A stretch of DNA of 47,766 bases from a virus (IMGVR_UViG_3300009100_000005); one strand, 5' to 3'; positions 1,494 to 41,199 are shown, counted from the stretch's first letter. The notes: generated by a model from the letters alone, not told the origin. Numbers and translations are program-made.

Positions 1494-4400
1494 ATGCCAC
1501 AAAATGTCTATAAAGCGCAGTTGCCGGTCGAGACTGTGCCACAACCATATCAGGCTCAAGTTCCGTATGAAGCACAATTACCATCTGATGCGGAACCGGC
1601 ACAAGGTTGGGGTGGCGCAGTCCTCTCCACTATTGCTCCGGCATTAGAGTTTATCTCGCGTCCTCAGTATGCCTCAGCCAAGTTTGCCGATAGCTTGGCT
1701 GATCCGTCGAAGTCTATCTTCGATGCGATGCTTGGAGCATTTCAGGAGTTTGTTAGTCCGAAGGATAAACTTTCATACTCTGAAGTTATTAGACGTAGAG
1801 CGCCAGAGTTTGCAAAGATGTATCCTAAAGCTACTTCTGTTATAGGTTTTATGGGAGATGTAGCATTTGATCCAACTACCTATTTAGGTATTGGGTTTGC
1901 TCGACAAGGTTTAACCGTAGGTCGTAAAGTTCTTACAGAGTTTGGTGAACAAACTTTGCACAGACTTGAGAAAGATATAGCACAGCAAGAAATATTGACT
2001 ACGGTTAAGAACAAAGTGAGAACCAATGTTATTGAAGCGGAACGGAAAGGTATACAAGCTCAATCTAGTTTGTTTACTAAGACAGAAGCTAGGCAAAAGT
2101 ATGGCGAGGTTCGTAGTTCGTTCTTACAGGAATTTGATGAACTAGCCAAAGATCCTGAACTTATGCGTAAGCTTCAGAATGGTACTATTGCTAGAAGTCG
2201 AATGAATGATTTGGCTCTTGATGAGTTAAACTCTGCTGGTGCTAAGGCTAAGTTTTCAAAGACTGGATTAGTACAATTGAAAAGACAGAAACCTGTCGAG
2301 TCTGTGATTCGTAAGCTTGCGCCAGAGGAAGTTACCGAAAAGGCAAGCCAGCGTATTCAAAAGTTAGCTGATCTTGATCCTGTTATTGCCTCGAAGTATT
2401 TTAAGCCGCGAGAGATTAACCTTCTTATCGGTCTACCATTCGGTAAACAGAAAGAAGTGTTGAGAATAATGGGTCTTGATTATCTCGACAGCAAGATTGA
2501 TGCTATCGTCAAGTTTAGGGATATGATTGTAGGAAAGAATATTCCTGTAATCAGTGCTGCTCTTGGCGCAGGCATTAAAGCTGGCAGAATGGCAAAGAAT
2601 GCTTTTGTCAGACCAAACGAAGAGCCATACAAGAATGCTATTACCGCTCTTGAGAAAGCTAAAAACTATAACGTAGGAGAAGTACATCGAGAGATTGTCA
2701 AACTATTTGAAGGTGTTGATGAAGCAGGCCGACAAAAGATCAGCAAGCTTGGCGTCGCTATTGACGATGAAAGCAGAGAAGTCGAAGCAAGGATAGGTAG
2801 AAGTCTAACTCAGACAGAAGCAGACAGAATCTATAGGGATGAGCTTTCTAAAGTAACTTTAGCTCCGAAGGAGATGGCTGCTTTTGCTGGTTTGACTCAA
2901 TCATATAAGACAGCAATGGAACTTGAGATGGAAGCTGGACTTCTCAAGAGTGCATTGCTGAATTATTATCCTCGTTATTACAAAGCTTTGGCTGATCCTG
3001 GCGAGATGTCTGTTCTTTTCAAAACTAAAAAAGGATTGTCAACCTCCCTTTCTTCGTCAAAGAAAAGGGAGTTTTTAACTTTACAAGAAGCCGAAGCTAA
3101 TGGATTTGTTCCTGAATTGGATGCTGCCAAGATATACGCTGCTCGTGTTATATCTTCTCGTCGTGCCTTGTCAGTAAAGCAATTTGAAGATTCCTTGAAC
3201 GGCATCTACAACTTGCCACAAGGTACAAAGATTGGTAGCAAAGCATTTAACAAGGTTATCCCTTCTGAAATCAAAGACGATATCAGAACGTTAGGAGAGT
3301 CAGTTTACCCTAGTGGTATGAACTCCACTGTTAATGACTTCTTGTACGCATATGATAGGTTGATGGGATATTTCAGACAAGGTGCAACTATCTTAAAGCC
3401 AGCGTTTGCTGTCAAGCAATTGATTAGCAATACTATGCAAATGGCTTTTGGTACTAATGCTAAAGCCTTTAAGTCTATGGATGGTAGATCATTCCTCGAT
3501 GCATCTATGCTTCTTATGGACTATTACAGAGGCAAACCAATAGAAGGATTACCGGGAGTATTTAAAAGTATCTTGAACAAACATTCTCTATCTGGCGAAG
3601 GTGGCGTTGATGCCATTCTTGCTGGTAGGGTAGCTTTAGAAAGGTTGATTAAAGAAGATGATATTCAATCGTTTGCGAAAGCTATTGAAATCATCCAACC
3701 GTCTGGTATGCGGTATAGCGGGGTTGACGTTGTTCGTCTTGGTAGAGAACACGGAATGGTTGTCAACTTTGACGCATCTGGCGAACAAATGTTCAGGCAA
3801 GTAGATGAGATACTTTCCTATGATCCAAAAAATAAAGTAACTTTATCGAAAGAATTGTTCAAATATTGGAAGATGTCTTCCACGTTTGAAACATATTCTC
3901 GGATGTCTGGTTTCATCCAAGGTTTGCGTATGGGCTATTCGCCTAAGCAAGCTGCCGCTGTAGTCGAAGATAATCTCTTTGATTATCTACACGGTCTGAC
4001 TAAGATAGAGAAAAGTTTTATCAGACGGGTGATGCCATTCTATTCGTTCCAACGCTTTGCTATACCGCAAGTGCTAAGAACGTTAGTACGCCAACCGGGC
4101 AATGCTGCTACTACCAACAAGATAGTTAACTTGATGGAGAAGTTAATTGTACCGGATGCTGAGAAGATGTCGGAGGCTGAAAGGGAAACATTTGGTGATA
4201 CATTACTTGTCGAACAGCCTAGACTATTCACTGGTTTCGACAAAGAAGGTAGAGCCAACTTCAATATCTTCAACAACTTCTCCCCACTAGATGCTTTGTC
4301 TCTTATGGTATATGACCAGAAGACAGATAAACTTGACCTAGAAAGAACAGTTCAAAGAACTTTCTTGGCTGCTCTTGCACCATACCTTAAGATTCCACTT

Positions 4401-4949
4401 GAGATGGCAATAGGCCAGAACTTCTTTACTGGCAAAGCTTTAGAGACTGGTGGTAGGATTGGCCAGTTGTCATACATCACCAATAATACGCCTCAGATTG
4501 TTAAAGACTTTATTGGTTGGGAAGACCGATATAATGAAAGGAGCGGCGAGACTAGAACATACATTAACCCTTACTTTGCACACGTAAGTATGTCTCTATT
4601 TCCTGCTTTACGCGAGTACATCAAACCGCTCGATGCTGAGACTTCTGCTTTAGACAAGGCAATGCAAATGATTGTTGGCAGTGTTAATGTCAAAGCCGAT
4701 TTGAAGGCTCAGTCAGAATGGCAGGCTATGACTAGCAAGGGTAAAGCACAAGAACTAAAGAGTAGCATACGAAAGTCTATGCTTATGGGAAGTGAGAACG
4801 AGTATGAAAAGAACTTGAGGGAATACCAAGAGTATATGACAATGCTCGAAGAGAGTAATAAGAGAAAACAAGCTGGTGATATCCGTGGTGCTGGTCTTGG
4901 TAATCAGATGATGAATGCCGAGCCTGCCATATTTCAAGAGCAAAGATAA
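1494..4949 (+). CDS. large (1151 aa) virion-associated protein, putative ejection/internal core protein
   Basis: Longest ORF and last gene of the structural block, as in the podovirus gene order; ATG 9 nt after motif 1470-1484; carries two in-frame motif copies (2848, 3832); no catalytic motif recognised. Confidence 0.8.
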   Translation: MPQNVYKAQLPVETVPQPYQAQVPYEAQLPSDAEPAQGWGGAVLSTIAPALEFISRPQYASAKFADSLADPSKSIFDAMLGAFQEFVSPKDKLSYSEVIRRRAPEFAKMYPKATSVIGFMGDVAFDPTTYLGIGFARQGLTVGRKVLTEFGEQTLHRLEKDIAQQEILTTVKNKVRTNVIEAERKGIQAQSSLFTKTEARQKYGEVRSSFLQEFDELAKDPELMRKLQNGTIARSRMNDLALDELNSAGAKAKFSKTGLVQLKRQKPVESVIRKLAPEEVTEKASQRIQKLADLDPVIASKYFKPREINLLIGLPFGKQKEVLRIMGLDYLDSKIDAIVKFRDMIVGKNIPVISAALGAGIKAGRMAKNAFVRPNEEPYKNAITALEKAKNYNVGEVHREIVKLFEGVDEAGRQKISKLGVAIDDESREVEARIGRSLTQTEADRIYRDELSKVTLAPKEMAAFAGLTQSYKTAMELEMEAGLLKSALLNYYPRYYKALADPGEMSVLFKTKKGLSTSLSSSKKREFLTLQEAEANGFVPELDAAKIYAARVISSRRALSVKQFEDSLNGIYNLPQGTKIGSKAFNKVIPSEIKDDIRTLGESVYPSGMNSTVNDFLYAYDRLMGYFRQGATILKPAFAVKQLISNTMQMAFGTNAKAFKSMDGRSFLDASMLLMDYYRGKPIEGLPGVFKSILNKHSLSGEGGVDAILAGRVALERLIKEDDIQSFAKAIEIIQPSGMRYSGVDVVRLGREHGMVVNFDASGEQMFRQVDEILSYDPKNKVTLSKELFKYWKMSSTFETYSRMSGFIQGLRMGYSPKQAAAVVEDNLFDYLHGLTKIEKSFIRRVMPFYSFQRFAIPQVLRTLVRQPGNAATTNKIVNLMEKLIVPDAEKMSEAERETFGDTLLVEQPRLFTGFDKEGRANFNIFNNFSPLDALSLMVYDQKTDKLDLERTVQRTFLAALAPYLKIPLEMAIGQNFFTGKALETGGRIGQLSYITNNTPQIVKDFIGWEDRYNERSGETRTYINPYFAHVSMSLFPALREYIKPLDAETSALDKAMQMIVGSVNVKADLKAQSEWQAMTSKGKAQELKSSIRKSMLMGSENEYEKNLREYQEYMTMLEESNKRKQAGDIRGAGLGNQMMNAEPAIFQEQR
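2848..2862. repeat. junction palindrome CTAAAGTAACTTTAG
   Basis: Exact; inside 1494-4949, read as KVTL. Confidence 0.95.
3832..3846. repeat. palindrome variant ATAAAGTAACTTTAT
   Basis: 13-nt core exact; inside 1494-4949, read as KVTL. Confidence 0.9.
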
Positions 4950-4950
4950 A

Positions 4951-4965
4951 CTAAAGTAACTTTAG
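4951..4965. repeat. junction palindrome CTAAAGTAACTTTAG
   Basis: Exact; 1 nt after the stop of 1494-4949. Confidence 0.95.
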
Positions 4966-5194: not shown

Positions 5195-5209
5195 CTAAAG
5201 TAACTTTAG
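5195..5209. repeat. junction palindrome CTAAAGTAACTTTAG
   Basis: Exact; 14 nt upstream of ATG 5224. Confidence 0.95.
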
Positions 5210-5223: not shown

Positions 5224-5439
5224 ATGAATACGTTATCTGTTGTACTGACTGTGATAGGATGTACAATGGTGTTGGTAACTTCGGTGATCGGAGCGACTTG
5301 GAGATTGGCAGGTAAGATAGCAGACCTCCAAACTGCAATAGCTACTGCTAATGGCAAGATCGAAGGTCTGCAATTGATTATTTCTTCGCTTCAGTCGAGA
5401 ATAATCCACCTTGAGTCACGGTTGGATGCGAAGGGCTAG
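5224..5439 (+). CDS. small membrane protein (N-terminal TM helix plus coiled coil)
   Basis: Track ORF 5158-5439 trimmed to ATG 5224, which follows motif 5195-5209 and a GGAGGG SD; hydrophobic LSVVLTVIGCTMVLVTSVIG; hairpin plus T-run lies downstream. Confidence 0.65.
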   Translation: MNTLSVVLTVIGCTMVLVTSVIGATWRLAGKIADLQTAIATANGKIEGLQLIISSLQSRIIHLESRLDAKG

Positions 5440-5818
5440 TATTTATATCAACCAATTGTTGCAGGAGGTCTTTTACTCCTGCAATTTCTTTTTCTAGCTC
5501 CAATTGCTTAAAGAAGATATCCTTATTGCCTGCCTCGATTCTCACTACCGTTTGGTACATTTCAGGGTATGTGCCGGGTTTAGGTAGATTGTCGGGAGTG
5601 ATCTTGCCCGCTATTCTTTTGGTGAAGATGTCAGGATCGTCTCTATAGACTTTGTGGCCTAACACCGTTCTCTCTTCTACGTTATTGTCGGTTATTCTTT
5701 TCCAGATAAAGCTATCAGAAGCTTCGTATTTGACTCTAAGTTCTTCTCTGGTATAGAACAACTTGCCATCAAGCTTCACGCCGGTCGGTCTTCTCTTCTC
5801 TTCTTTCATCTTGCTCAC
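5378..5818 (-). CDS. hypothetical protein
   Basis: 146-aa ORF; ATG 5818 lies 9 nt after motif 5828-5842 with a GGAGGG SD; its 3' end overlaps convergent gene 5224-5439 by 62 nt. Confidence 0.65.
   Translation of the reverse strand: MSKMKEEKRRPTGVKLDGKLFYTREELRVKYEASDSFIWKRITDNNVEERTVLGHKVYRDDPDIFTKRIAGKITPDNLPKPGTYPEMYQTVVRIEAGNKDIFFKQLELEKEIAGVKDLLQQLVDINTSPSHPTVTQGGLFSTEAKK
5459..5495 (+). terminator. Rho-independent terminator-like hairpin ending the plus-strand late block
   Basis: TTGCAGGAG (5459-5467) pairs with CTCCTGCAA (5476-5484), 8-nt loop, followed by TTTCTTTTTCT; embedded in the 3' coding part of convergent ORF 5378-5818. Confidence 0.55.
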
Positions 5819-6188
5819 CCTCCTGAGCTAAAGTAACTTTAGCATCTAATTCCACGTCCAATTCTGTGCAATCCTTAAATTCATCAATGATAGTGTGCTT
5901 AAGCTCATATGATAGGTTGAAGTTACGCTGTCTTTTCAACTCTACCACTGCCATTAGGGTGTACTTCATCCAACTATAAAGCATTAACTCTTTCAATGGT
6001 GAGGGATACTTGCTATCAATGTAGAAGCATAATGCTCCACAAAGAACGCGAGACATACCTCGCAAAAAATCTTCATTGTTAAGGTCTTCTTCGTTAAGAT
6101 TAGCTTCTACCTCATCTAGTTGTATCTTTAGACAAGATTCGCCAATTCCGTCCAGCTTGATGCCCATTTCTTTTAGCTCATCAAACAT
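5769..6188 (-). CDS. hypothetical protein
   Basis: Track ORF 5769-6215 begins with GTG; I prefer ATG 6188, which overlaps the upstream stop (ATGTTTGA); the C-terminus reads through motif 5828. Confidence 0.55.
   Translation of the reverse strand: MFDELKEMGIKLDGIGESCLKIQLDEVEANLNEEDLNNEDFLRGMSRVLCGALCFYIDSKYPSPLKELMLYSWMKYTLMAVVELKRQRNFNLSYELKHTIIDEFKDCTELDVELDAKVTLAQEGEQDERREEKTDRREA
5828..5842. repeat. junction palindrome CTAAAGTAACTTTAG
   Basis: Exact; 9 nt upstream of minus-strand ATG 5818; read as KVTL in the upstream ORF. Confidence 0.95.
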
Positions 6189-6570
6189 TCTTCTTTGACT
6201 CCAAGTACCTGACACGGCTTTTTTTTCTCTTCAAGATTGCTCTTGCTAGTTGATCAACCGTGATGTAGTCTCGTACCAATATAGGATTGGTTACTATCAC
6301 TATCCAATTACGGATTTGTGCTTCGCCAATCTTCTCATAGTCATTACTAACACCAACTATTGTGGTATGTCCGGTCCTTCCGATATTGCCTTTTGTTTTG
6401 GAATATCGGATGCCATTGTATTCTATAGCCACTTTCAGATCAGTCCAAGCATAGTCGAATCGCCAATCACGGCTATCCATAAACTTATATTCGTACTGAT
6501 CTGGAAGTGGGAGATTTACTTCAGCAATTTGCGTCAGTAGTAAACCTTTGTAATTCACTTTGTCTTTCAC
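6181..6570 (-). CDS. PD-(D/E)XK-type endonuclease (Vsr/DUF559-like pattern)
   Basis: WRFDYAWTDLKVAIEYNG...H...NDYEK...NWIVIV resembles the D...E-x-K core of Vsr/DUF559-like nucleases; GTG start is the last base of motif 6570-6584. Confidence 0.5.
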   Translation of the reverse strand: MKDKVNYKGLLLTQIAEVNLPLPDQYEYKFMDSRDWRFDYAWTDLKVAIEYNGIRYSKTKGNIGRTGHTTIVGVSNDYEKIGEAQIRNWIVIVTNPILVRDYITVDQLARAILKRKKSRVRYLESKKNV

Positions 6571-6584
6571 TAAAGTTACTTTAG
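6570..6584. repeat. junction palindrome CTAAAGTTACTTTAG
   Basis: Exact; its loop is the stop of 6576-6827; its last base is the G of GTG start 6570. Confidence 0.95.
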
Positions 6585-6827
6585 TTTCTTCAGTTCCTTC
6601 TTGATAGCTTTCTTGGCAGCTTTCAAGTGAAACTTTCGTTCTTTTTCGTTTGTAAACTCTCCGGTCAGACTGTCACCAATTGGTGATTTGTATACTTCTT
6701 TGCCAGAACTGTTAGGAAAGCTAGCAGAGAAATATCCATATCTTAACCGAAGGTAGCCAACCAGTTCTTTCTTATGAAAGACATCGTATTGTTCTGGACA
6801 AGCATCGCAAGTCTTGACTAATACCAT
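6576..6827 (-). CDS. hypothetical protein with lysine-rich C-terminus
   Basis: 83-aa ORF; stop TAA is the loop of motif 6570-6584. Confidence 0.65.
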   Translation of the reverse strand: MVLVKTCDACPEQYDVFHKKELVGYLRLRYGYFSASFPNSSGKEVYKSPIGDSLTGEFTNEKERKFHLKAAKKAIKKELKKLK

Positions 6828-6830
6828 ACT

Positions 6831-7136
6831 TTACTTCTTTGGCTTCAGTGAGCCGATTGCTTTGTCAAGCCTATCGTGTACTACAGCCAGTTCTCGCTGT
6901 ACCTCTCTTAGGATATTGATGTTATCGTCAGAGAGTTTCTTTTGTTCCTCTAGCCAAGCATTGATCCAATCTCTCAATTGGATAACTTCTTTAGTCCGAA
7001 GTTTTATTGTGTGTCTATCGTGTAGACCCATACTGTCTAGTCTGATAGCAACACAATCCGATATCAGTTGATCGGAATTAAGATATGTTGTCGTATCAGA
7101 AACTATCGTATTCCTAGTCAAGTGCAAATCTTTCAT
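6831..7136 (-). CDS. hypothetical protein
   Basis: 101-aa ORF; ATG 7 nt after motif 7144-7158, with the SD fused to it (TTTAGGAG). Confidence 0.7.
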   Translation of the reverse strand: MKDLHLTRNTIVSDTTTYLNSDQLISDCVAIRLDSMGLHDRHTIKLRTKEVIQLRDWINAWLEEQKKLSDDNINILREVQRELAVVHDRLDKAIGSLKPKK

Positions 7137-7143: not shown

Positions 7144-7158
7144 CTAAAGTTACTTTAG
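7144..7158. repeat. junction palindrome CTAAAGTTACTTTAG
   Basis: Exact; fused to AGGAG, 7 nt upstream of ATG 7136 (minus strand). Confidence 0.95.
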
Positions 7159-7248: not shown

Positions 7249-7662
7249 TTATTCTTCACTTGTAATGTTATCAGCGTCATTAGTTGTTTCGGCAACTGGT
7301 GGATTGCCATCGTTAAACTTTCCAAGTTGATTGACTAGGGAGCAAAATCTGCTCTTAACTGCTGGCGACATAAGATGTATTATGAAGCCTATTCGTGCAT
7401 TGACCACAGAGATATAGAGTAACTGTCTCTCTGAAAGATCAGCCCACGAACAGTGGAGCATCTGGACGTGGAACATACCGACATATGCCTCCACTTCTAG
7501 CCCACTTGGGATATGCCTCATAATACCAGCTCTCCAATGGTCTGGATATGAGTTAAAAACGTCGTGGAATGTTTCTAACAGTTGTGGAGTCATACTCTTA
7601 TATACTTGGACAGCGGCAAAGATTCCATCTTTAGCGTTTTCTTTCTGTTCTATTACTCCCAT
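7249..7662 (-). CDS. hypothetical protein (shares an IPxG...YVGxxH segment with 18669-19001)
   Basis: Track ORF trimmed to ATG 7662, 11 nt after motif 7674-7688 with a GGAGG SD. Confidence 0.65.
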   Translation of the reverse strand: MGVIEQKENAKDGIFAAVQVYKSMTPQLLETFHDVFNSYPDHWRAGIMRHIPSGLEVEAYVGMFHVQMLHCSWADLSERQLLYISVVNARIGFIIHLMSPAVKSRFCSLVNQLGKFNDGNPPVAETTNDADNITSEE

Positions 7663-7673: not shown

Positions 7674-7688
7674 CTAAAGTTACTTTAG
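7674..7688. repeat. junction palindrome CTAAAGTTACTTTAG
   Basis: Exact; its loop is the stop of 7680-8102; 11 nt upstream of ATG 7662. Confidence 0.95.
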
Positions 7689-8102
7689 TAGATATTGGGC
7701 CAGTGAGTAAGCTAGTATGACGGCTGCTATTCCTAAGCAAAATAGAAAACAGCCCATCTCACTCGCCCAATCTGATTTTACCTTAGCTTCGGCAATGACT
7801 CGTTTTATCATTGCTTCTTGCTGTTGCTCAGTTTGCTGTAAATGTTTAGTAGCATATTCGACGGCATCGTCGAAATCTTTAAGTGAGGCGAAGCAATGCG
7901 GTTTAGCATTTCTCGCATAGTGGTTGTGATTAGGTAGTAATACTACACCGAGTGTGTTCCATTCAGTAAACTTCCATTCTTGTTTACAAAACTCACAATG
8001 ATGAATGATATGTGGTTTTGCTCCATCGGTATCTATATGCTGTTCTCCACATCGAGGACACCATAGTATACATCTTACTGCATCAAATCCTATTTCAGCC
8101 AT
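7680..8102 (-). CDS. zinc-ribbon protein with C-terminal TM anchor
   Basis: CPRCGEQH...HHCEFC cysteine/histidine pairs; hydrophobic C-terminus; stop TAA is the loop of motif 7674-7688. Confidence 0.65.
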   Translation of the reverse strand: MAEIGFDAVRCILWCPRCGEQHIDTDGAKPHIIHHCEFCKQEWKFTEWNTLGVVLLPNHNHYARNAKPHCFASLKDFDDAVEYATKHLQQTEQQQEAMIKRVIAEAKVKSDWASEMGCFLFCLGIAAVILAYSLAQYLLK

Positions 8103-9016
8103 CAGTCCTCCGCTGGATAGAATCCTTCTAAAGTTACTTTAGAAGTATCTTCCATCTCTCTTCTGAACTCCATTTCCTCTTCCTCTTCTTGAGCAAACTT
8201 TGGTCGAGTTGAACCAGTCCAGCAACTATCATAGAAGCGACAGAATTTACACTGGCTAGAGTTAGATCGAGTTTCCTCCTTATGGATAAGGCCCAATGGA
8301 TTCTTTCTTCTGATAGCTCTGATTGTATCTCTTAATCGAAGCAATCTATCCTGAATGAAATTCTCATTAGGCACTATTAGGATTGGCGACATTATATCAG
8401 ACGTAGCCCTATTCTTTATTATCAGATAGAACGGCATTCCCATCGCTTTGGTATACCATTGAATCTGACCGTACCATTGGTCTGATATTTCGCCTGTCCT
8501 CTTTATCTTATCCCACGTATACTTTTTGACTGACTTGATTTCTAAGCCGTAGTTCCTGTCTTTGAAAACAAGAACACCATCAATGTGAGATATGATTTTA
8601 AACTTTACTACGTCTACACTATTAGTTTCTTGGTCTTCTATCTCGCAAGCAATATCTGTTATCTTCTCATATTCCGGCTTATTTCCACAAGCCGCAACGT
8701 GTAACCCTCCTTTTTCTAAATGCTCAAAGACTGTAGCCTCGTGTATATGTCCATCATATAACGATGCTTCGGATTCTGCTCCCCTAATAGATGTACTAAC
8801 ACCATTTGCCATTGCTTGATACAAGCAGAGTTGACAAATATTAAATTCGCTGCCGTGAAAGTGACCTCTTACTTTCGCCGGTTTAGCTTTAGCTGCATTC
8901 ATTCTGCACGCTTGGCAAGGCTGACTTTGATCTGATGTCTTTAGCGCCCCGCCATAATATGCATTACGAATGAACCAAGATGTCTCGTCGTTATGCGGCT
9001 TCAGGCTTACTTGCAT
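8102..9016 (-). CDS. Cas4/RecB-like PD-(D/E)XK exonuclease with Cys cluster
   Basis: HIDGVL...LEIKSVK (D...ExK), QWYGQIQWY (QxxxY), N-terminal CQAC and C-terminal CKFCRFYDSC cysteines. Confidence 0.65.
   Translation of the reverse strand: MQVSLKPHNDETSWFIRNAYYGGALKTSDQSQPCQACRMNAAKAKPAKVRGHFHGSEFNICQLCLYQAMANGVSTSIRGAESEASLYDGHIHEATVFEHLEKGGLHVAACGNKPEYEKITDIACEIEDQETNSVDVVKFKIISHIDGVLVFKDRNYGLEIKSVKKYTWDKIKRTGEISDQWYGQIQWYTKAMGMPFYLIIKNRATSDIMSPILIVPNENFIQDRLLRLRDTIRAIRRKNPLGLIHKEETRSNSSQCKFCRFYDSCWTGSTRPKFAQEEEEEMEFRREMEDTSKVTLEGFYPAED
8128..8142. repeat. junction palindrome CTAAAGTTACTTTAG
   Basis: Exact; read as KVTL near the end of 8102-9016; 25 nt upstream of ATG 8102. Confidence 0.95.
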
Positions 9017-29491: not shown

Positions 29492-29502
29492 AGGGAGGTA
29501 AT

Positions 29503-34245: not shown

Positions 34246-36093
34246 ATGTCACCGTTAGAACAAGAAGCAAAAACAGGAGCAGATGCATACAACCTGTGGG
34301 CCGCTAGGATTCAAACGGCCATCTTCTGGCGTGCGAATCTGTGGAACGGTGACGCTCTCTGGAAGCGAGCATACCGGGATTACAAAGGTATGCAGTGGAA
34401 CGAGATGGTAGATGAAGGCCAGGATAAGGCATCGGATAATCCGGCAGATCAGATTACGATCAATATCCTGGCTTCTCAGATAATGACTCTTGCTCCATTT
34501 CTGGTTAATACAAATCCTGAGTACAAGGGTAAGGCCAGAAAGCCGGATGGTTATGTATCGTCAATGATTCAAGAAGCGGTACTTAACTACGAATGCGATA
34601 GAAAGAAAGTCTTCGATCAATTGCTGAAATCTGTTTACGATGATCTTATCATCGGTCACGGTGTAGCCAAAACGGGATTCACCCGTAAGATTGACGAAGC
34701 GACATTAGCTGCTGCTGGCGATATAGTTTATGAGGATTATATTGCTGATGAGTCAGTCTATGCAAAAAGAGTCAGACCGTTCGATTTTTTCTTTGATCCA
34801 AATGCCTCTGAGCGTAACTTGGAGACGGCAAGGTGGTGTTGTGAACGTTACTACAAATATGCAACAGACGTTGCGGTTAATGATGCTTACAAGTCGTCAG
34901 TTACTCGCAAGTTGCGTAGTGGTGAATACAAGCTCAACACTAAAAACCTTGTCTACCCTGAGTACAGCAGTGATCAGGTGCCAGGATATCCAAGCGGAGC
35001 TACTGAAGAGACATACATCAATCCAGAATCTGAGCTTGCGATTCTGTATGAGATTTGGGATAAGAAGCATAACAAGTATTACGTATTTGCTGATGGCGTG
35101 CCTGAGCCTTTGCTTGAGGCGAGGTCGCCATACGACTACTTGAAGGGAGAATTCCCCTATAAGAAAGTTGATTTTGTTCTGTTGCCTGACGAATGGTATG
35201 GTGTTGGTGTACACTATATGATCCAAGATCAGGCATATGAATTGAACCGACACAGAACGTTTAGCTTCCATCACAGACGCAGATTTTCTGCTAGAAAGTA
35301 TGAAGCTTTAAACTCAATAGAGAATGACGAACTTGAAAAGCTTGCTGGCGGTGAAGATGGGGCATACATAAAAGTTCCTGCAACTGGATCGGTTAAGCCT
35401 ATCGAAGATGTTCCTATGCCACAAGATTATATCTTGGTGGAACAACTGATTAAGGCTGATATCGAAACAATGACTGGCGTGGATCAATTGATTCGTGGTG
35501 GTCAACTTCCAAGCAGAACAACTGCCGGTGAAGTAGGGACAAGAGTTAACGTCTTTACTTCTAAGCTTGCGCACAAGATTAAATCGGTTGACGATTTCTA
35601 TCTTGGAATAGGAATGCAGCTAAATACTCATATTGCTGCCAACTATTCAAGGTCGCAAGTTGTACGTGTTGTCGGTGCCCAAGGTGAGTTCTTTGTTGAA
35701 TACTCTCCACAAGACCTCAAGGATGAAATCATCATTGAGATGGAGACTATCAGCGCGCCTAAGTATGATCCGGCTGTTGATAAGAATCAGCGTATACAGT
35801 TGTTTCAGATCATTGCTCAGATGTGGCAGACAGCTATGCAAGCTGGACAACAGTTACCGATTAACTTTCAAGAGTTGTTTAAATGGGTCATTGAGGCGTT
35901 TGATTATAAGGATATTGGTAGGTTCTTTGCTCCGGCGAATCAACCTATTCAACCTCCACAAGTAATTACGTCTAGTCAGTTGGGACAACAGTTACCACAA
36001 CAACAGACAATGAATTCGCAAGACTTGTTAAGACAAATTTCTGGCCAAGCAACTGCTGCTGGTGGCCAAAACGGAAATCCATCAGGAATTTAG
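34246..36093 (+). CDS. putative portal protein
   Basis: 615-aa ORF downstream of the terminase and upstream of scaffold/capsid; Gln-rich C-terminus; call rests on position and size. Confidence 0.6.
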   Translation: MSPLEQEAKTGADAYNLWAARIQTAIFWRANLWNGDALWKRAYRDYKGMQWNEMVDEGQDKASDNPADQITINILASQIMTLAPFLVNTNPEYKGKARKPDGYVSSMIQEAVLNYECDRKKVFDQLLKSVYDDLIIGHGVAKTGFTRKIDEATLAAAGDIVYEDYIADESVYAKRVRPFDFFFDPNASERNLETARWCCERYYKYATDVAVNDAYKSSVTRKLRSGEYKLNTKNLVYPEYSSDQVPGYPSGATEETYINPESELAILYEIWDKKHNKYYVFADGVPEPLLEARSPYDYLKGEFPYKKVDFVLLPDEWYGVGVHYMIQDQAYELNRHRTFSFHHRRRFSARKYEALNSIENDELEKLAGGEDGAYIKVPATGSVKPIEDVPMPQDYILVEQLIKADIETMTGVDQLIRGGQLPSRTTAGEVGTRVNVFTSKLAHKIKSVDDFYLGIGMQLNTHIAANYSRSQVVRVVGAQGEFFVEYSPQDLKDEIIIEMETISAPKYDPAVDKNQRIQLFQIIAQMWQTAMQAGQQLPINFQELFKWVIEAFDYKDIGRFFAPANQPIQPPQVITSSQLGQQLPQQQTMNSQDLLRQISGQATAAGGQNGNPSGI

Positions 36094-36095: not shown

Positions 36096-36110
36096 CTAAA
36101 GTTACTTTAG
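36096..36110. repeat. junction palindrome CTAAAGTTACTTTAG
   Basis: Exact; 13 nt upstream of ATG 36124. Confidence 0.95.
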
Positions 36111-36911: not shown

Positions 36912-36926
36912 CTAAAGTTACTTTAG
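36912..36926. repeat. junction palindrome CTAAAGTTACTTTAG
   Basis: Exact; ends 1 nt before tRNA-Tyr. Confidence 0.95.
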
Positions 36927-36927
36927 T

Positions 36928-37013
36928 GCCATTGTTGGGAAGTTGGTATCCCGACCCGTCTGTAAAACGGGTGTTCTTGACAGGACGTGAGAGTTCGAGT
37001 CTCTCCAATGGCA
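36928..37013 (+). tRNA. tRNA-Tyr (anticodon GTA), class II with long variable arm
   Basis: Acceptor GCCATTG / CAATGGC; D-arm GGGA-AGTTGGTA-TCCC; anticodon arm CCCGT-CTGTAAA-ACGGG; 17-nt variable arm; T-arm GAGAG-TTCGAGT-CTCTC; discriminator A; no encoded CCA; starts 1 nt after motif 36912-36926. Confidence 0.85.
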
Positions 37014-37037
37014 TAGGGCGAATGCTTTAGGGAGTAC

Positions 37038-37214: not shown

Positions 37215-37229
37215 CTAAAGTAACTTTGG
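37215..37229. repeat. degenerate copy CTAAAGTAACTTTGG
   Basis: One mismatch; followed by TGCC, as is copy 36912. Confidence 0.6.
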
Positions 37230-37239: not shown

Positions 37240-37254
37240 CTAAAGTTACTTTAG
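37240..37254. repeat. junction palindrome CTAAAGTTACTTTAG
   Basis: Exact; 23 nt upstream of ATG 37278; enclosed by the CCCTCTC/GAGAGGG stem. Confidence 0.95.
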
Positions 37255-37277: not shown

Positions 37278-37802
37278 ATGCCAATGTATGAATTTTATTG
37301 CGAGTGTTGCAAAAATAGATGGGAAGAGTGGTATCCCTGGAAGCATAATGATGGTGTCACCTATACGGATGATCCCACTATGCAGGAGTGCCACGAGGAT
37401 TCTGAGCATAAGGTAGAATTCCTTGATTCTCTTTACTCTCCACGACCAGATGATATGTGGATGGGAGTAATGACAGACGTAGGATACTTTACTGATAAAA
37501 AGAAATGGGATGATGCAAGACATCGTGATAGATTTGGCAATAAGCGTGAGTTGTACGATGTGACTAATAGAGGTGATCGTGAGTACCTTACTAAACACGT
37601 CGAGAGGGAAAAGAAAGAGCAAGAAGAGAAAGATTTTAATCAGATTGAAAAGGTTGTTGCTAAGAATGTTATGGATCACGATTTTAGTCCTGACAATACT
37701 CATATCATTCGAGGTCAGCCTGAAGCCTTTGCCGAAGATGTGGATATTGTCGAAATGAAACAAGACGGTTTTACCGAACAGCAAATCGCTGCTTACAAGT
37801 AA
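37278..37802 (+). CDS. FmdB-type zinc-ribbon protein
   Basis: N-terminal MPMYEFYCECCKNRWE matches the MPxYEYxCxxCG FmdB/CxxC_CxxC_SSSS pattern; its SD GAGAGGG can pair with CCCTCTC 37232-37238. Confidence 0.55.
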   Translation: MPMYEFYCECCKNRWEEWYPWKHNDGVTYTDDPTMQECHEDSEHKVEFLDSLYSPRPDDMWMGVMTDVGYFTDKKKWDDARHRDRFGNKRELYDVTNRGDREYLTKHVEREKKEQEEKDFNQIEKVVAKNVMDHDFSPDNTHIIRGQPEAFAEDVDIVEMKQDGFTEQQIAAYK

Positions 37803-37811: not shown

Positions 37812-38429
37812 ATGGGTGGATATGTCCATTATGATAGAATTGATGTGGGTTATCCAAAACCACAAACAATCATTTCAGATTCATTGAAGAAAGAGTTTAA
37901 TGATATGCCGGAAGATCGCAAGGAAAAAGTTATCAATCTTCTCCAAGCTAAGATTCGTCTGCTTGAGCAGAAGTGGATTGCTGATGTGAATATGTATGAG
38001 ACTCAGCAAGCAGAGGAAGATCGTAAATTCTTTCTCCATTATCGCAAGCCTACTAAACTAGAGCGAGAGGTGTTGATGAATGCCAGTGATAACATCGATG
38101 AGGTACTTCCGTATAAGCCTGTCGAAGATACTATCAAGAGAAACATCTTTGATAGGAGTGCTGCGTTTGACAGTCTGTTTGGTCTGAAAACTGATACAGT
38201 GTGTATGGGTCACGATGATGATCTATACGAATCTTTGGATATGACTCCCGTAGAGCCATTACCGACTAAAGTAACTTTAGTTGAGCAGCTCAACAAAGAA
38301 TTGGATCAGCTGACTATGCTCGTCGAAAGGATGGGTAATGTTTGTATTGTCGTTAATAAGAGAACACATAATATCGTATACAGTAACGAAACTGAAGATA
38401 CGGTAACAATCACATTCGAGAGGAAGTAA
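37812..38429 (+). CDS. hypothetical protein
   Basis: 205-aa ORF with an AAGGAGG SD; internal motif at 38266. Confidence 0.65.
   Translation: MGGYVHYDRIDVGYPKPQTIISDSLKKEFNDMPEDRKEKVINLLQAKIRLLEQKWIADVNMYETQQAEEDRKFFLHYRKPTKLEREVLMNASDNIDEVLPYKPVEDTIKRNIFDRSAAFDSLFGLKTDTVCMGHDDDLYESLDMTPVEPLPTKVTLVEQLNKELDQLTMLVERMGNVCIVVNKRTHNIVYSNETEDTVTITFERK
38266..38280. repeat. junction palindrome CTAAAGTAACTTTAG
   Basis: Exact; inside 37812-38429. Confidence 0.95.
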
Positions 38430-38430: not shown

Positions 38431-39192
38431 ATGTCAAAGTTCGATGTAGATTCGATCAAGAGTATGACTATGACTGACGATGGCATCCAGTTTGAACTCG
38501 ATGAGTCAGAGGAAGAAGACAAGGATGTAGGAGAAGAGGAAGAGGAACAAGAGTATGAGCTAGCCGACGATGATAGCTCGACAGGCGAAGATGACGAAGA
38601 GGAAGTGGAAGAAAAACCCTCTCGATCAAAGTCTAAATCGGACGACAACATCGAGGCCAGATTCAATCGGATTGAAGGTCTGATTGATAAGATGGCTACT
38701 GCCATCGTTGACGGTAGGGGTAAGGCCAAAGTCACTGAAGAAGAAGAGGAAGATTTAGAGGATTTAGATGATCCGAAGAAACTTCTTTCCACCATCGAAA
38801 AGAGAGTTGCTAAGCTTATTGACAATCGTTTAGCACCACATCAGGACGCTATGCAGGCCGCTACCGTTCGGTCACAGTTCGACGCTGCGGCTGGCAGATA
38901 TGGTCAAACGTTCATTGATGCTGCTCCGCTTGTTGCTAGATTGATGCTTGCGTCAAAAGGTTCGATGTCTGTTGAAGAGGCTTATTCTACGTTGAAAGAA
39001 AACGGGATGGTTAAGTCTACTCCACGAAAGACCAAGCAACAGGTTATCAAGGAGAAGAAGCAAGTTAAGAGTGATGCAGACGATGAGGAAGTGGTTACTA
39101 CTGGTAATCGCGTACCTCTTAGAAAGAAAGGTCGTAGCGTTAAAGAGAGTGCTATGGAAGCTTTAAAGAAATTAAGTCGTGGTGAACTCTAG
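38431..39192 (+). CDS. putative scaffolding protein (highly acidic)
   Basis: 253 aa with long Glu/Asp runs, immediately upstream of the capsid gene; positional inference. Confidence 0.5.
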   Translation: MSKFDVDSIKSMTMTDDGIQFELDESEEEDKDVGEEEEEQEYELADDDSSTGEDDEEEVEEKPSRSKSKSDDNIEARFNRIEGLIDKMATAIVDGRGKAKVTEEEEEDLEDLDDPKKLLSTIEKRVAKLIDNRLAPHQDAMQAATVRSQFDAAAGRYGQTFIDAAPLVARLMLASKGSMSVEEAYSTLKENGMVKSTPRKTKQQVIKEKKQVKSDADDEEVVTTGNRVPLRKKGRSVKESAMEALKKLSRGEL

Positions 39193-39193: not shown

Positions 39194-39208
39194 CTAAAGT
39201 AACTTTAG
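39194..39208. repeat. junction palindrome CTAAAGTAACTTTAG
   Basis: Exact; 1 nt after the scaffold stop; 40 nt upstream of capsid ATG 39249. Confidence 0.95.
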
Positions 39209-39248: not shown

Positions 39249-40295
39249 ATGCCGAACGTAAACTTCGAGCAATTGGCAACGACCACGTTGCGTCTGCACA
39301 GACCCGAACTTGCCGATAATATCACCGGCAAGAACGCGGCTATTGTTCAAATGAAACAGCGTGGTTTCGTTGAGGAAGAGGAAGGCGCTCTTTCCTACAA
39401 CGAACCCATCCTGTTTGACGAGAACAGTACAACTGGTTCCTATCGAGATTGGGACCCAATTGATCTGACTCCGCAAGACGGTATGACCAACGCTGAGTTC
39501 TTGATTGCTCAGCTTGCAGGATCTTTGATGATTTCTGGTCGTCAGGAGTTCATCAACAGCGGTAATCGTACCCGTATCATCAATCTTCTTACAGCCAAGA
39601 CGATGCAGCTTCAGAAGTCCCTGACTCTGCTCGTTAACCGTCAGTCCCACGGTGACGGTACTGGAAATAGCGGTAAAGACCTGACTGGCTTCGCTGCCCT
39701 AGTTGAGAGCGGTGCGGGTGGTCTGTGGTCTGTCGTTGGTGGCATTGACTCCCAAACTGATGTTTGGTGGAGGAATCAATGGCTAGACTTCGACGTTGCT
39801 TTGACCAGTGCTGCCGGTCTTTCCTTTGGTAACGTCCAAGATATGGCTGAGTTCCGCCGTTTCGTAACCACAATGGTTAACGCTGCGATGCGTAACTCTG
39901 AGCGTACTACGCTTCTTCTGTCAGACCAGATGGTTCACGAGTATATGGAATCCACCATTACTCAGAACGAACGGTATGTCAAAGAAGGTTCGATGGCTGA
40001 TGCTAATCTGGCTAACGCTGGATTCGTCAACATCTTCTTCAAAAACATTCCCTGGGTGATGGATGACGATATGCCTGGATTCTCTTTGGTTGCCGGTTCT
40101 GACAATCACGAAATCCTTGGTCTGAACAACGACTTTCTCCATCTTAAGATTGGTAAAGGCAAGAACTTCGTCGTGACTCCTTTCGTCCGTCCGCCTGACA
40201 AAGACGGTAAGGTTGCACAAGTCCTGTTCTACGCTAACTATACGATTGCGAATCGTCAGCGTCAGTTCAGAATTGATAACATTGACTTCGCATAA
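39249..40295 (+). CDS. putative major capsid protein
   Basis: 348-aa ORF following the scaffold-like gene; size, position and composition are typical of HK97-fold capsid proteins; not verified by homology. Confidence 0.65.
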   Translation: MPNVNFEQLATTTLRLHRPELADNITGKNAAIVQMKQRGFVEEEEGALSYNEPILFDENSTTGSYRDWDPIDLTPQDGMTNAEFLIAQLAGSLMISGRQEFINSGNRTRIINLLTAKTMQLQKSLTLLVNRQSHGDGTGNSGKDLTGFAALVESGAGGLWSVVGGIDSQTDVWWRNQWLDFDVALTSAAGLSFGNVQDMAEFRRFVTTMVNAAMRNSERTTLLLSDQMVHEYMESTITQNERYVKEGSMADANLANAGFVNIFFKNIPWVMDDDMPGFSLVAGSDNHEILGLNNDFLHLKIGKGKNFVVTPFVRPPDKDGKVAQVLFYANYTIANRQRQFRIDNIDFA

Positions 40296-40296: not shown

Positions 40297-40311
40297 CTAA
40301 AGTTACTTTAG
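40297..40311. repeat. junction palindrome CTAAAGTTACTTTAG
   Basis: Exact; 1 nt after the capsid stop; 19 nt upstream of ATG 40331. Confidence 0.95.
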
Positions 40312-40330: not shown

Positions 40331-40909
40331 ATGGCTGGTACAACTAATATTCTCGATATTGATCGAGTGACTACTGCCCAAGAGCACGATCTTAGTACGA
40401 TTATGGATGACCCTAGAGGTAAATTTGGGGTCATCACTATCAATCGTGTCATTGCTGGTTCTGTAGTTACTGAAACAGTTCGCTATTCTCCTGGCGGACA
40501 GTTTATGTATGTGCAAGCAGGGTCTACCATTGTTGGTGCTGATGCGGCTGCTGGCGGTGATGCTTTAATGATAAGCAATGCCGGTTCCGATACGCTTAAG
40601 CCTGGACTGGTAATTCCTACTGCTGGCGTTACTGATGTTGTTGCAGGTATAGCTCGCGTATCTCAAGCAACCAGCTCCTTTGGCTGGATGCAAATCAGAG
40701 GTCGCGTATACAATTGTAAGGTGGCTGATGGTTTTGCCGAAGGTGATGCTTTGGGTGCCTCTGCTACTGCTGGAAGACTTGTACTTCTTACTGCTACCAC
40801 GCCAACAACTGCGGAAGTTATAGCGGCTATTCGTTTCGCTGCCGGTCGTCGCGCATTCGGTTTGGTGGATACTGGTGCTAACCTCGGTGACGTTAACCTT
40901 GCGGGGTAA
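40331..40909 (+). CDS. putative head decoration/accessory protein (Ala/Gly-rich)
   Basis: Track ORF trimmed to ATG 40331, 19 nt after motif 40297-40311 with a GGAG SD; positional inference. Confidence 0.45.
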   Translation: MAGTTNILDIDRVTTAQEHDLSTIMDDPRGKFGVITINRVIAGSVVTETVRYSPGGQFMYVQAGSTIVGADAAAGGDALMISNAGSDTLKPGLVIPTAGVTDVVAGIARVSQATSSFGWMQIRGRVYNCKVADGFAEGDALGASATAGRLVLLTATTPTTAEVIAAIRFAAGRRAFGLVDTGANLGDVNLAG

Positions 40910-40911
40910 TT

Positions 40912-41199
40912 ATGCAAAAGAAAAGTGTTGGTCAGCCTTTAGCTAAACAAGTAAAGGCTGACCAAGAATTTACGCTTGCAGATGATTATAGTGAAGAGTA
41001 TCTTGAAGCTAAAGTAACTTTAGTCGAAGAAGAGAAATACAATCTCGGAGAGGGTGAGGCCAAAGAATCAGTAGCTCTTGCAAAGCCGTATAGCAGGAAG
41101 AAACAGCATAAGCTTGTTAATCAAGATTCTGTTGAAGAAATCCTTCCTACGGCATACCAACCGGGATTACTTGTTAGGAGATTAAAGAAAAATGCCTAG
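40912..41199 (+). CDS. hypothetical protein
   Basis: 95-aa ORF; internal motif at 41009. Confidence 0.55.
   Translation: MQKKSVGQPLAKQVKADQEFTLADDYSEEYLEAKVTLVEEEKYNLGEGEAKESVALAKPYSRKKQHKLVNQDSVEEILPTAYQPGLLVRRLKKNA
41009..41023. repeat. junction palindrome CTAAAGTAACTTTAG
   Basis: Exact; inside 40912-41199. Confidence 0.95.

Follow-up and report, generated by a model that had tools for sequence, protein, structure and literature searches.

The Cluster O mycobacteriophages carry 34 copies of a 17-bp palindrome, 5'-TGTTCGG-NNN-CCGAACA, the function of which is unknown and for which dimeric regulators have been suggested as readers (PMC4351075). In the Cluster A phages (L5, Bxb1), asymmetric 13-bp stoperators are bound by a monomer and point one way with respect to transcription; their motif tracks the divergence of the repressor, and the bound phage protein acts on the elongating polymerase (PMC9283540, PMC6550527). 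Here we analyse IMGVR_UViG_3300009100_000005, the genome of an uncultured phage (hereafter the window, i.e., the whole stretch of 47,766 nucleotides), in which another palindrome, C-TAAAGT-W-ACTTTA-G, recurs from end to end. The Cluster O palindrome is its closest published analogue, in the sense of analogy and not of homology. The reading that we favour, with some reserve, is that of an evenly spaced array of sites for a dimeric, sequence-specific protein, which would read this DNA-level signal on the double strand.

Number, spacing and reading frame of the copies

The core of the palindrome, TAAAGTWACTTTA, is present 67 times in the window, where 0.02 copies would be expected and where 100 shuffled sequences gave at most one. 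The copy at 47687 duplicates the copy at 44 through a terminal overlap of 123 bp (bp 1-123 are identical to 47644-47766, which leaves a unit of 47,643 bp), so that 66 copies are unique. The core is preceded by C in 57 and followed by G in 53 of the 67 copies, which extends the palindrome to 15 bp, and the central base is A in 31 copies, T in 36 and never G or C. The motif is all-or-none: only three sequences deviate from it by one mismatch and five by two, about 3.4 of the latter being expected by chance. Isolated half-sites are not enriched (TAAAGT, 36 vs 30.5 expected; CTAAAGT, 8 vs 6.4), and a Chi-like hotspot was rejected on this count.

The three one-mismatch sequences are TAAAGCTACTTTA at 14492-14504 (-), read as KVAL in the DNA polymerase, TAAAGTTACTCTA at 21738-21750 (-), read as RVTL in a pentapeptide-repeat protein, and the intergenic TAAAGTAACTTTG at 37216-37228. 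An initial annotation of this DNA had taken KVAL, RVTL and KYVTL for decayed relics. This is plausible for the first two, which exist as described, whereas KYVTL (43308) is doubtful since it requires a 3-nt insertion in addition to a mismatch. The variant TAAAGCTACTTTA also stands in place of two noncoding copies (25760 and 29355) in the related contig L275.

With public gene calls merged with our own open reading frame (ORF) calls as the gene model, 22 of the 66 copies lie wholly inside genes, and all 22 are translated as KVTL. The initial annotation had stated this for 18 copies, all of which are exact (their cores begin one base after the positions it listed) and to which those at 15160, 15399, 24966 and 27697 must be added. 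The tetrapeptide thus occurs 22 times in 14,185 residues, each time through the motif, against 0.32 occurrences predicted by composition. It is forced and not an independent fact, because the other two frames of the 15-mer hold TAA or TAG on either strand: C-TAA-AGT-WAC-TTT-AG contains TAA, CTA-AAG-TWA-CTT-TAG contains TAG plus, when W is A, TAA, and the opposite strand gives the same frames, the motif being palindromic. The earlier statement that AAA-GTW-ACT-TTA is the only open reading needs one amendment: in the minority of copies that combine W=T with a pyrimidine as 3' flank an additional frame is open, which no gene uses.

Most copies sit where genes meet. The motif supplies the stop codon of 17 genes, and a start codon follows within 30 nt in 36 of the 66 copies (3.6 at random), with a modal distance of 10 nt that just fits a Shine-Dalgarno sequence. 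About ten of the 22 intragenic copies occur among the final 7-23 codons of a gene, or among its initial 6, where this gene overlaps or adjoins its neighbour, and are functionally really pre-start copies. Truly deep are the remaining 12, beginning at 2849, 3833, 9096, 9530, 13865, 17199, 21341, 27697, 30628, 32847, 38267 and 41010. The earlier gene assignments are right for the polymerase (13865), the primase-helicase (17199) and the large terminase (32847), while the copies at 9096, 9530 and 11756 belong to small ORFs and the large terminase holds none of the other listed copies. Neither internal initiation nor a role as module boundaries, which had also been considered, is borne out: at none of the 12 deep copies is there a systematic Shine-Dalgarno sequence plus start downstream, after copy 2849 AAGGAG abuts ATG without a spacer and the methionine is not conserved in homologues, and the polymerase copy is no insertion.

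The palindrome has a density of ~1.4/kb, with a mean gap of 722 bp between copies. The coefficient of variation (CV) of the gaps is 0.59 vs 0.97 for random placement, and the largest gap measures 1883 bp, a value that none of 2000 random placements attained (random mean 3424 bp). The deep copies were tested conditionally, the regularity of boundary sites being partly automatic. Without them, gaps would reach 3481, 2577, 2284, 2024, 1954, 1933 and 1893 bp; 10 of the 12 fall in the eight largest gaps, and their random re-placement never reached the observed evenness or maximum gap (0/20,000). This shows that the deep copies have been positioned where they fill the widest gaps, i.e., that copies exist inside genes because long genes would otherwise leave ~1.9 kb or more free of sites. 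Six relatives with other motifs have under-dispersed gaps too (CV 0.32-0.75).

Selection, symmetry and possible role of the sites

Close relatives, with 73-82% nucleotide identity, are represented by contigs of four or five phages (L207 and L275 are probably one phage). Some of these contigs overlap one genome, so that the 62 site pairs that can be aligned are not all independent. Six further contigs, L001-L006, are the same genome as the window (>=99.99%) and hold no evolutionary information. Across the 62 pairs there is not one half-site substitution (0/744), whereas the flanking ±30 nt differ at 23% of positions; in 10 pairs the centre has flipped between A and T. Without exception, the 27 pairs with intragenic sites of the window are exact. 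In the polymerase, conserved residues keep the same codon in 54% of cases in the two more distant of three relatives and in 72% in the closest, and the block CT-AAA-GTA-ACT-TTA is identical in all four polymerase genomes compared. That purifying selection acts on the nucleotides and not on the peptide, as the initial annotation had proposed, is strongly supported by these alignments, including the comparison of the motif with its drifting flanking codons that it had suggested.

The opposite view, in which K-V-T-L would be a functional protein motif (for docking or cleavage) and the identity of the DNA a side effect, may draw on the polymerase, in which KVTL is retained in homologues down to 81% identity and K-V-T is found at the same spot in a 46% homologue that lacks the motif. 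Yet all 22 KVTL share the single spelling AAA-GTW-ACT-TTA, for which background codon usage predicts 2.3% each, two thirds of all copies are untranslated, and the proteins concerned are functionally unrelated. Moreover, at the corresponding places or close to them, relatives encode EVTS, LTGLK, FNPVK, LNNLN or FKLFK. In one of these relatives, L127, a single motif gives two peptides (LNNLN in the primase and FKLFK in the polymerase), both open frames being used, which excludes selection at the peptide level. To judge from these sequences, this view is effectively refuted already and we give it a negligible chance.

These peptides come from a large family of uncultured phages with genomes of ~40-44 kb that was found by terminase and polymerase searches. 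Members with a terminase identity of at least 37% mostly have a dense palindrome of their own in the same 7-1-7 layout, as defined by exact half-sites on partial loci: CTGAAGTwACTTCAG (L208), TTAAAG-nnn-CTTTAA (L209), TTTAACCsGGTTAAA (L126, L211, L214, L215 and L252), TTTAAATwATTTAAA (L127/L217, L213 and L210), TTAAACAsTGTTTAA (L220), TTCAAACwGTTTGAA (L226) and TTCAAATsATTTGAA (L227). The motif is weak or lacking in L125/L219 and L218 and lacking in all the more distant relatives, which are richer in GC. The linker that follows the zinc ribbon of the primase reads TKVTL in the window, LTGLN in L126 and LNNLN in L127. Polymerase columns 309-316 are PKVTL in the window and FNPVK in L126, and at columns 102-114 the KVAL relic of the window aligns with an exact copy of the L208 motif (TEVTS), with the copies of L126 (LTGLK) and L127 (FKLFK) nearby. 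The terminase carries the lineage's own motif at one of three variable mid-gene spots, where TKVTL of the window coincides with RKETL of L209. The alignments show that the motif is recoded by lineage across the family while the intragenic sites are kept at or near the same positions.

The variants also reveal what kind of site is conserved. The central base is A/T in four lineages and C/G in three (L227, L220 and L126/L214), with both orientations about equally frequent, which is what a dyad axis through a base pair predicts and would be unnatural for the loop base of a hairpin. In seven lineages positions -1 and +1 do not vary and complement each other, even though a hairpin could not pair them, a one-base loop being impossible. 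The two equally used centre variants differ in the stability of the RNA hairpin (-1.9 vs -0.4 kcal/mol). Compared across the lineages, the geometry of the site is thus shown to be two-fold symmetric, as for duplex DNA.

This geometry bears directly on the idea of an RNA-level signal, a hairpin of 6 bp and 3 nt located 5' of ribosome-binding sites that would act in short-range antitermination (boxB/N-like), in mRNA processing or in translational control. The frequent position of the copies shortly before start codons, their nut-like occurrence ~25 nt into two leftward early transcripts and the copy that abuts a tRNA gene would all suit such a signal, and a short-range antiterminator would likewise need regular sites. 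However, the hairpin is marginal, the A/U or C/G centre and the complementary, unpairable -1/+1 positions are marks of duplex symmetry, and the copies have no preferred orientation (W=A in gene orientation in 42/66 against a background of 0.54, p=0.14). In addition, cleavage or repression within the polymerase, primase and terminase mRNAs would be harmful. We consider an RNA signal unlikely. An Rfam search of the window returned the tRNA only, and a boxB/nut-type hairpin was rejected in view of the degenerate centre, the unpairable -1/+1 and the lack of a matching RNA family. An intrinsic terminator was rejected as well, each arm having one G-C pair (two with the C/G flanks) and a stability of -0.4 to -1.9 kcal/mol, with no T run. 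Canonical terminators and sigma70-like early promoters exist apart from the motif.

The lack of orientation is equally awkward for a promoter element. TAAAGT fits TAnnnT and might be a -10-like hexamer for a host RNA polymerase redirected by a phage factor, as at T4 late promoters, providing nearly every gene with a start of its own shortly before the Shine-Dalgarno sequence. The conserved G of the 3' flank would be a plausible start that leaves a leader of 10-25 nt, and the copies at 26136 and 29478 stand between terminator hairpins and genes without a sigma70-type promoter. Against this, the reading of a -10 element is asymmetric, whereas the palindrome is invariant as a whole and TAAAGT shows no enrichment on its own. 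The density is equal in the replication and structural blocks, the 12 deep copies have no start downstream, and antisense RNA would swamp the genome if all 66 sites fired in both directions. The ORFs of the window gave no match to an RNA polymerase or sigma factor, a highly diverged factor being possible. A promoter role therefore seems to us slightly less probable still than an RNA signal, and T7-like or T4-late-like promoters were rejected on the palindromic, unoriented form, the deep copies without starts and the lack of an RNA polymerase or sigma domain.

If, as we favour, the palindrome is read by a dimer on duplex DNA, the phage would need a site about every 0.7 kb with no gap above ~1.9 kb. 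Most sites would be squeezed between a stop codon and the next ribosome-binding site, often supplying the stop; in over-long genes point substitutions would build a site at a tolerant linker or loop, and every gene that crosses a site would have to read K-V-T-L, the peptide being a by-product. The polymerase copy illustrates this step: there is no gap in the alignment, L208 has AAAGTAACTGAC (KVTD) at this place, and the copy appears to be built by substitution on a pre-existing K-V-T stretch, with no insertion.

Such an origin by substitution is hard to reconcile with a recombination or cassette-boundary element, at which co-infecting relatives would cross over, or with a selfish palindrome that spreads by itself. 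In support of the former, there are genes for a Cas4/RecE-like exonuclease and for an SSB-like protein, the sets of small genes between primase-helicase and polymerase vary among relatives and that of the window is bounded by copies, and repeat-flanked indels have been reported for the Cluster O palindrome (PMC4351075). But evolvability, a second-order benefit, cannot hold 66 sites at 0/744 changes, gap-filling placement is not expected of a selfish element, and the searches of the window yielded neither a transposase nor a RAYT or homing nuclease. This class of explanation is quite improbable in our eyes. A mobile palindrome of the REP/RAYT or MITE type was rejected for its part, given an exact 15-mer that is intragenic in one third of its copies, its origin by substitution and the lack of a transposase.

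That a dimeric protein binds the array, which protein this is and what the array does are matters that we infer. The ceiling of ~2 kb on the gaps speaks for local action along the DNA, which might consist in coating or organisation, in protection, or in roadblocks and insulation. Our best guess for the role is genome-wide coating, organising or self-marking, or else transcription roadblocks, in each case nucleated at the spaced sites. More tentatively, and with the odds somewhat against it, the array might constitute a phage 'chromatin' or self-identity code that a whole family of ~40-48-kb phages maintains: perfect 15-bp palindromes evenly spaced at ~0.7-1 kb, never more than ~2 kb apart, and read by a fast-co-evolving dimer. 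It would nucleate a protective or organising nucleoprotein coat and dictate amino acids in polymerase, primase-helicase, terminase and portal, and its sites (66 here) would be rewritten in concert upon a shift in specificity. We know of no spacing-constrained, protein-overriding site array described for phages.

The reading protein would most likely be phage-encoded, a host factor being possible as well. The only recognisable sequence-specific DNA binders in the genome are the products of three tandem small winged-helix (wHTH) genes (22584-22823, 22836-23087 and 23105-23350, all -; Pfam HTH_34) of 79, 83 and 81 aa, which are 28-34% identical to the first and whose genes are separated from each other by motif copies that supply stop codons. 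Proteins of the MarR/PadR/AspA-like fold class bind palindromes as dimers. The AlphaFold winged-helix model (pLDDT 90) matches MarR/PadR/ArsR folds and, over its full length, AspA. On the strength of this model the trio can be put forward, as a weak hypothesis, as candidate motif-binding proteins. A hidden Markov model (HMM) of the trio finds homologues only in close relatives with the same motif. Another protein, a conserved one of 378 aa, was rejected as a motif-specific binder since it is SSB-like, with a DDDIPF tail.

Several observations weigh against an array of dimer sites as we read it. The spacing owes some of its regularity automatically to the location of copies at gene boundaries, and the ceiling near 1.9 kb has no explained functional meaning. 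The winged-helix trio has no detectable homologue in other palindrome lineages, including the nearly complete genome m127, and is not demonstrable family-wide; nor is any small regulator shared across the lineages detectable. A role in expression would also suit the 36 copies located at most 30 nt (mode 10 nt) upstream of a start, and two copies directly follow terminator hairpins, before genes without an obvious promoter. Finally, an apparently unrelated genome, L061, has nearly the same core at ~0.9/kb, which fits a host-encoded or mobile reader gene equally well.

In this last genome (L061/L071/L084; IMGVR_UViG_3300029913_000052, 41 kb), TAAAG-YWR-CTTTA occurs 13 times in 14 kb, at gene boundaries; TAAAGC, a half-site that is common there, is seen in the window only as a relic variant. 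This contig shares no detectable protein homology with the family except for a polymerase match at 24%.

Genes and single copies along the genome

The window is a complete or nearly complete genome, the assembly of which is, judged from its repeated ends, circularly closed or terminally redundant. It is 99.995% identical to the JGI metagenome contig Ga0075428_100000314 over the compared stretch and 99.99-100% identical to two Logan assemblies. Pfam and PHROGs searches of all ORFs yielded almost nothing besides replication and structural genes and, in particular, no integrase, partition protein, RNA polymerase, methylase or homing nuclease. Neither a megablast search with 4.7 kb nor a tblastn search with an 1151-aa protein found a match among 50,697 phage records, and the capsid resembles those of Mx8/Mx9-like and other phages at 24-29% identity only. 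The phage is probably lytic, because no prophage copy of the family was found in 185,579 species genomes, the sole match being a 1.2-kb fragment binned in an acidobacterial metagenome-assembled genome.

At the left end, the copy at 44-56 (duplicated at 47687-47699) lies 13 nt upstream of the start of ORF 70-1473, and the TAA of the copy at 1471-1483 is the stop of this ORF, with the next start, at 1494, 10 nt downstream. There begins the gene of the 1151-aa protein (1494-4949, +), at the end of the structural block. It has no match in Pfam, PHROG or the phage database and is nevertheless among the best-conserved genes of the family (36-44% identity, above the polymerase in L127 and L128). Two deep copies cross it, both read as KVTL: the one at 2849-2861 (+; aa 453-456) fills the gap of 3481 bp, and the one at 3833-3845 (+; aa 781-784) has A/T flanks and faces ..VTL or ..VTK in homologues. 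Past the stop of the gene come an intergenic copy at 4952-4964 (2 nt away) and another at 5196-5208, 15 nt upstream of ORF 5224-5439.

The copy at 5829-5841 (-) is 19 aa from the C-terminus encoded by ORF 5769-6188, at its 3' end, and 19 nt upstream of the start of 5378-5809. At 6571-6583, the central TAA ends ORF 6576-6827 and the copy abuts the start of 6181-6570; the copy at 7145-7157 is intergenic, 8 nt upstream of the start of 6831-7136, while that at 7675-7687 contains the stop of 7680-8102 and is 12 nt upstream of the start of 7249-7662. In the gene of the Cas4/RecE-like exonuclease (8102-9016, -), a 3'-end copy at 8129-8141 (-) is 8 aa from the C-terminus, with the next start 26 nt downstream. 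Two deep copies occupy the small ORFs 8991-9287 (9096-9108, -; aa 61) and 9371-9715 (9530-9542, -; aa 59), neither of them the polymerase, and the second is exact in L205 with its centre flipped. An intergenic copy at 10413-10425 is 7 nt upstream of the start of 10031-10405.

The 378-aa SSB-like protein (10551-11687, -) is conserved in the family, with three invariant cysteines and a C-terminal DDDIPF identical to the tip of E. coli SSB; it probably represents an SSB that contains zinc and docks to replisome partners of the host or the phage. The start of its gene is 68 nt downstream of the copy at 11756-11768 (-; ORF 11687-12013, aa 83), and the copy at 12583-12595 (-; ORF 12514-12792, aa 67) is 10 nt upstream of the start of 11958-12572. 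The family-A DNA polymerase (12794-14743, -) has its deep copy at 13865-13877 (-; aa 290-293, KVTL), which is exact in five of the five aligned relative contigs and shares its columns with the L126 motif (FNPVK). The copy at 15160-15172 (-) forms codons 3-6 of ORF 14740-15177 (MNKVTL) and also the stop codon of 15170-15388, and 10 nt upstream of the start of the latter lies the copy at 15399-15411 (-; ORF 15327-15545, aa 46). The T7-gp4-like primase-helicase (15843-17459, -) is followed 8 nt past its stop by an intergenic copy with T/C flanks (15822-15834). Its deep copy at 17199-17211 (-) encodes aa 84-87 in the linker ~25 residues past the zinc-ribbon cysteines (C56-x2-C59), i.e., just past the zinc finger, as had been noted initially; it is exact in five of the five aligned contigs, and L126 and L127 carry their own motifs in this linker.

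Further leftward copies continue the pattern. The stop of 17760-17918 lies inside the copy at 17755-17767, 9 nt upstream of the start at 17745; the copy at 18729-18741 (-; ORF 18669-19001, aa 88) precedes the start of a Band_7 gene (17915-18718) by 10 nt, and the intergenic copies at 19010-19022 and 20555-20567 precede those of 18669-19001 and 20011-20544 by 8 and 10 nt. Between them, the copy at 19769-19781 (-; ORF 19721-19999, aa 74) has the next start 40 nt downstream, and the deep copy at 21341-21353 (-) is at aa 44 of ORF 20960-21481. Around the winged-helix trio, the copy at 22579-22591 contains the stop of 22584-22823 (next start 10 nt downstream) and that at 23095-23107 the stop of 23105-23350, 7 nt upstream of 22836-23087. 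Likewise, the copy at 23929-23941 contains the stop of 23939-24322 and touches the start of 23702-23929, and that at 24547-24559 contains the stop of 24557-24952, 14 nt upstream of the start at 24532, while the copy at 24966-24978 (-; ORF 24942-25103, aa 43) has the next start 13 nt downstream.

The early region contains two ORF-poor stretches, 25104-25890 (0.8 kb) and 27953-29502 (1.5 kb), with three and seven copies, many of which have A/T and not C/G flanks. ORF-poor DNA is the richer in copies, as the second stretch illustrates. Both stretches may resemble an origin, have a regulatory role or code for small RNAs. The first holds the noncoding copies at 25308-25320, 25418-25430 and 25760-25772, the second five copies at 28411-28423, 28584-28596, 28912-28924, 29209-29221 and 29388-29400 in addition to that at 29355-29367. 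The copies at 25760 and 29355 are those aligned to the one-mismatch variant in L275. Sigma70-like promoters are found at 27542-27514 (-), 27571-27599 (+) and 25490-25462 (-). Beside them stands a second repeat, ACACTATATGTTGTGGT(GTAAACAATCGTT), at 27544-27605 and 25521-25537, which is upstream of both leftward promoters and overlaps the rightward one. In both leftward leaders a palindrome copy ~32 nt past the -10 (25418-25430 and 27470-27482) is followed by a similar GCAAG(G)CGC(G/A)ATACG segment, so that early promoter and leader look like a duplicated module. The first leftward early gene (26195-27391) starts 27 nt past the copy at 27419-27431, and aa 40 of the first rightward ORF (27581-27952) falls in a deep copy at 27697-27709 (+). 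Behind the first early gene stands a strong bidirectional terminator hairpin (26157-26187); the first gene of the rightward block is directly preceded by a terminator-like one (29439-29469). Each has a motif copy next to it and then a gene without an obvious sigma70 promoter: the copy at 26136-26148 lies between the former and the start of 25891-26115, that at 29478-29490 between the latter and the start of 29503-29832.

In the rightward block, the TAA of the copy at 30087-30099 is the stop of 29946-30089, with the next start 9 nt downstream; a deep copy at 30628-30640 (+) is at aa 106 of ORF 30314-30982, and the copy at 31349-31361 (+) is at aa 133 of a conserved 159-aa ORF (30954-31433), likely the small terminase. 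The large terminase gene (32101-33984, +) is delimited by two copies and crossed by a third: at 32089-32101 the TAA ends 31798-32091 and the last A is that of the terminase ATG, at 33982-33994 the TAA is the terminase stop, and the deep copy at 32847-32859 (+; aa 250-253) is in the same columns as the L209 copy, other lineages having theirs at two other variable mid-gene spots. The copy at 34214-34226 provides the TAA stop of 34007-34216, 19 nt upstream of the start of the portal gene (34246-36093, +), and an intergenic copy at 36097-36109 is 3 nt past the portal stop and 14 nt upstream of 36124. Within the structural gene block, a tRNA-Tyr (GTA) gene (36927-37014, +) is preceded at a distance of 1 nt by the copy at 36913-36925. 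The copy at 37241-37253 is 24 nt upstream of the start of 37278-37802, and a deep copy at 38267-38279 (+) is at aa 153 of ORF 37812-38429. The major capsid protein gene (39249-40295, +) has intergenic copies on either side, at 39195-39207 (2 nt past the stop codon of 38431-39192 and 41 nt before the capsid gene) and at 40298-40310 (2 nt past the capsid gene stop and 20 nt upstream of 40331). The last deep copy, 41010-41022 (+), is at aa 34 of ORF 40912-41199. Intergenic copies at 41747-41759 and 45911-45923 lie 22 nt upstream of 41782 and 12 nt upstream of 45936. Those at 42770-42782, 44472-44484, 44627-44639 and 46686-46698 provide the TAA stops of 42470-42772, 42786-44474, 44495-44629 and 45936-46688, being 3, 10, 9 and 10 nt upstream of 42786, 44495, 44649 and 46709, respectively.

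Outside the family, a literature search for the exact motif matched only an unrelated C. elegans paper, and an IMG/VR scan with the 15-mer and with the 15-mer plus GGAG gave almost exclusively single chance matches, L061 being the sole multi-copy one in a collection that does not include the genome of the window itself. A metagenome scan for paired copies found unrelated contexts only (operator-like pairs in high-GC contigs, AT-rich marine contigs and a tandem array). The high-GC contigs L282, L289, L291 and L293 (GC 0.66-0.70) have two TAAAGTWACTTTA copies 28-29 bp apart, centre to centre, directly upstream of a conserved ORF, the first copy coming after a TTGACA promoter hexamer in L282, L289 and L291. 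These pairs look like the classical operator of a bacterial regulator, and because they flank promoters in this way TAAAGTWACTTTA would be an ordinary operator-type sequence. Two relatives with little or no palindrome have other peculiarities: L212 (IMGVR_UViG_3300005983_000002), in which it is weak, repeats another 12-mer, CTATTGACTCTA, 6 times, which may be promoter-like, and the motif-poor L125/L219 (m125; IMGVR_UViG_3300050512_000016) has ORFs that, read by eye, resemble LAGLIDADG- and HNH-type homing endonucleases, of which the window has none.

Comparison with described systems

A DNA-level signal here overrides coding in essential enzymes, which read KVTL, EVTS, LTGLK/FNPVK or LNNLN/FKLFK depending on the palindrome of the lineage. 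For gene callers and codon-based selection tests this is a warning that apparent peptide conservation can be a DNA constraint. The graded motif variants offer a test set for how a DNA-binding protein and dozens of sites may change specificity together, and the motif can serve as a signature for recognising and classifying this uncultured family.

Among known classes, PeSL cassettes of T4-type phages and REP elements are short stem-loop repeats at gene boundaries. They are imperfect, longer, GC-rich and extragenic only, and act via RNA structure or promoters, REPs together with a RAYT partner. None of these features (imperfect, GC-rich, extragenic only, with a transposase) holds for the palindrome of the window. 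Centromere-like systems (parS/ParB, the Noc-binding sites NBS, MatP/matS and the AspA centromere of pNOB8) resemble it in that 13-16 bp palindromes on duplex DNA are bound by dimers that spread or bridge; their sites are clustered or regional and not at every gene boundary, and no ParA or ParB was found in the window. AspA, a winged helix of ~90 aa, fits the 81-aa protein of the window structurally (TMq 0.83) with weak sequence similarity (E 0.012), a fold match no better than that to generic MarR/ArsR regulators.

In phages, the conserved inverted repeats of phiC31 and the C1 operators of P1 exemplify one phage regulator with roughly 17-20 dispersed sites per genome. These are far fewer sites, located near early-gene promoters, and the P1 operators are asymmetric. 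To our knowledge, neither a spacing rule nor intragenic recoding has been found for them. Cluster A stoperators share with the window dozens of near-identical sites in short intergenic gaps and a motif that differs between related phages, here as 66 dispersed copies and seven lineage variants. However, in place of an asymmetric monomer site there is a perfect palindrome with W at its centre in both orientations, and in place of one-way orientation 42/66 copies (p=0.14). Nor does the window have the setting of a temperate phage with immunity repressor and integrase or parABS, no integrase, Par or CI-like domain being present by detectable homology and no prophage being known from the genomes searched. 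Conversely, stoperators have not been reported to be spaced or to recode essential genes, both of which are seen here. The operators of dimeric HTH or winged-helix proteins correspond in form: two-fold sites of ~13-17 bp, the centre of which is not contacted or is read indirectly, as in the 7-1-7 layout with a W or S centre and half-sites that are symmetric in seven lineages.

The Cluster O palindrome shares with that of the window the invariant half-sites, the free A/T-rich centre, more than 30 dispersed copies and about three one-mismatch variants (PMC4351075). In both, about a third of the copies are intragenic, many are at the 5' ends of genes, there is no orientation, and positions are conserved in relatives. 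The phage, its presumed host and the sequence are unrelated, and the spacer is 7-3-7 in Cluster O vs 7-1-7 here. The window has no nucleotide match to any deposited phage, hence no homology to Cluster O. At 1.4/kb its density is ~3 times that of Cluster O (~0.5/kb, for a genome that is reportedly ~70 kb). The purpose of abundant palindromes of this type has been unknown since 2015, and the spacing rule limits the mechanisms to local action over ~1-2 kb. What is new with respect to Cluster O, as far as reported there, are the gap-filling intragenic copies, the lineage-specific recoding and the forced single peptide; the palindrome array as a whole is new in its density, its intragenic gap-filling and its family-wide concerted recoding with protein change.

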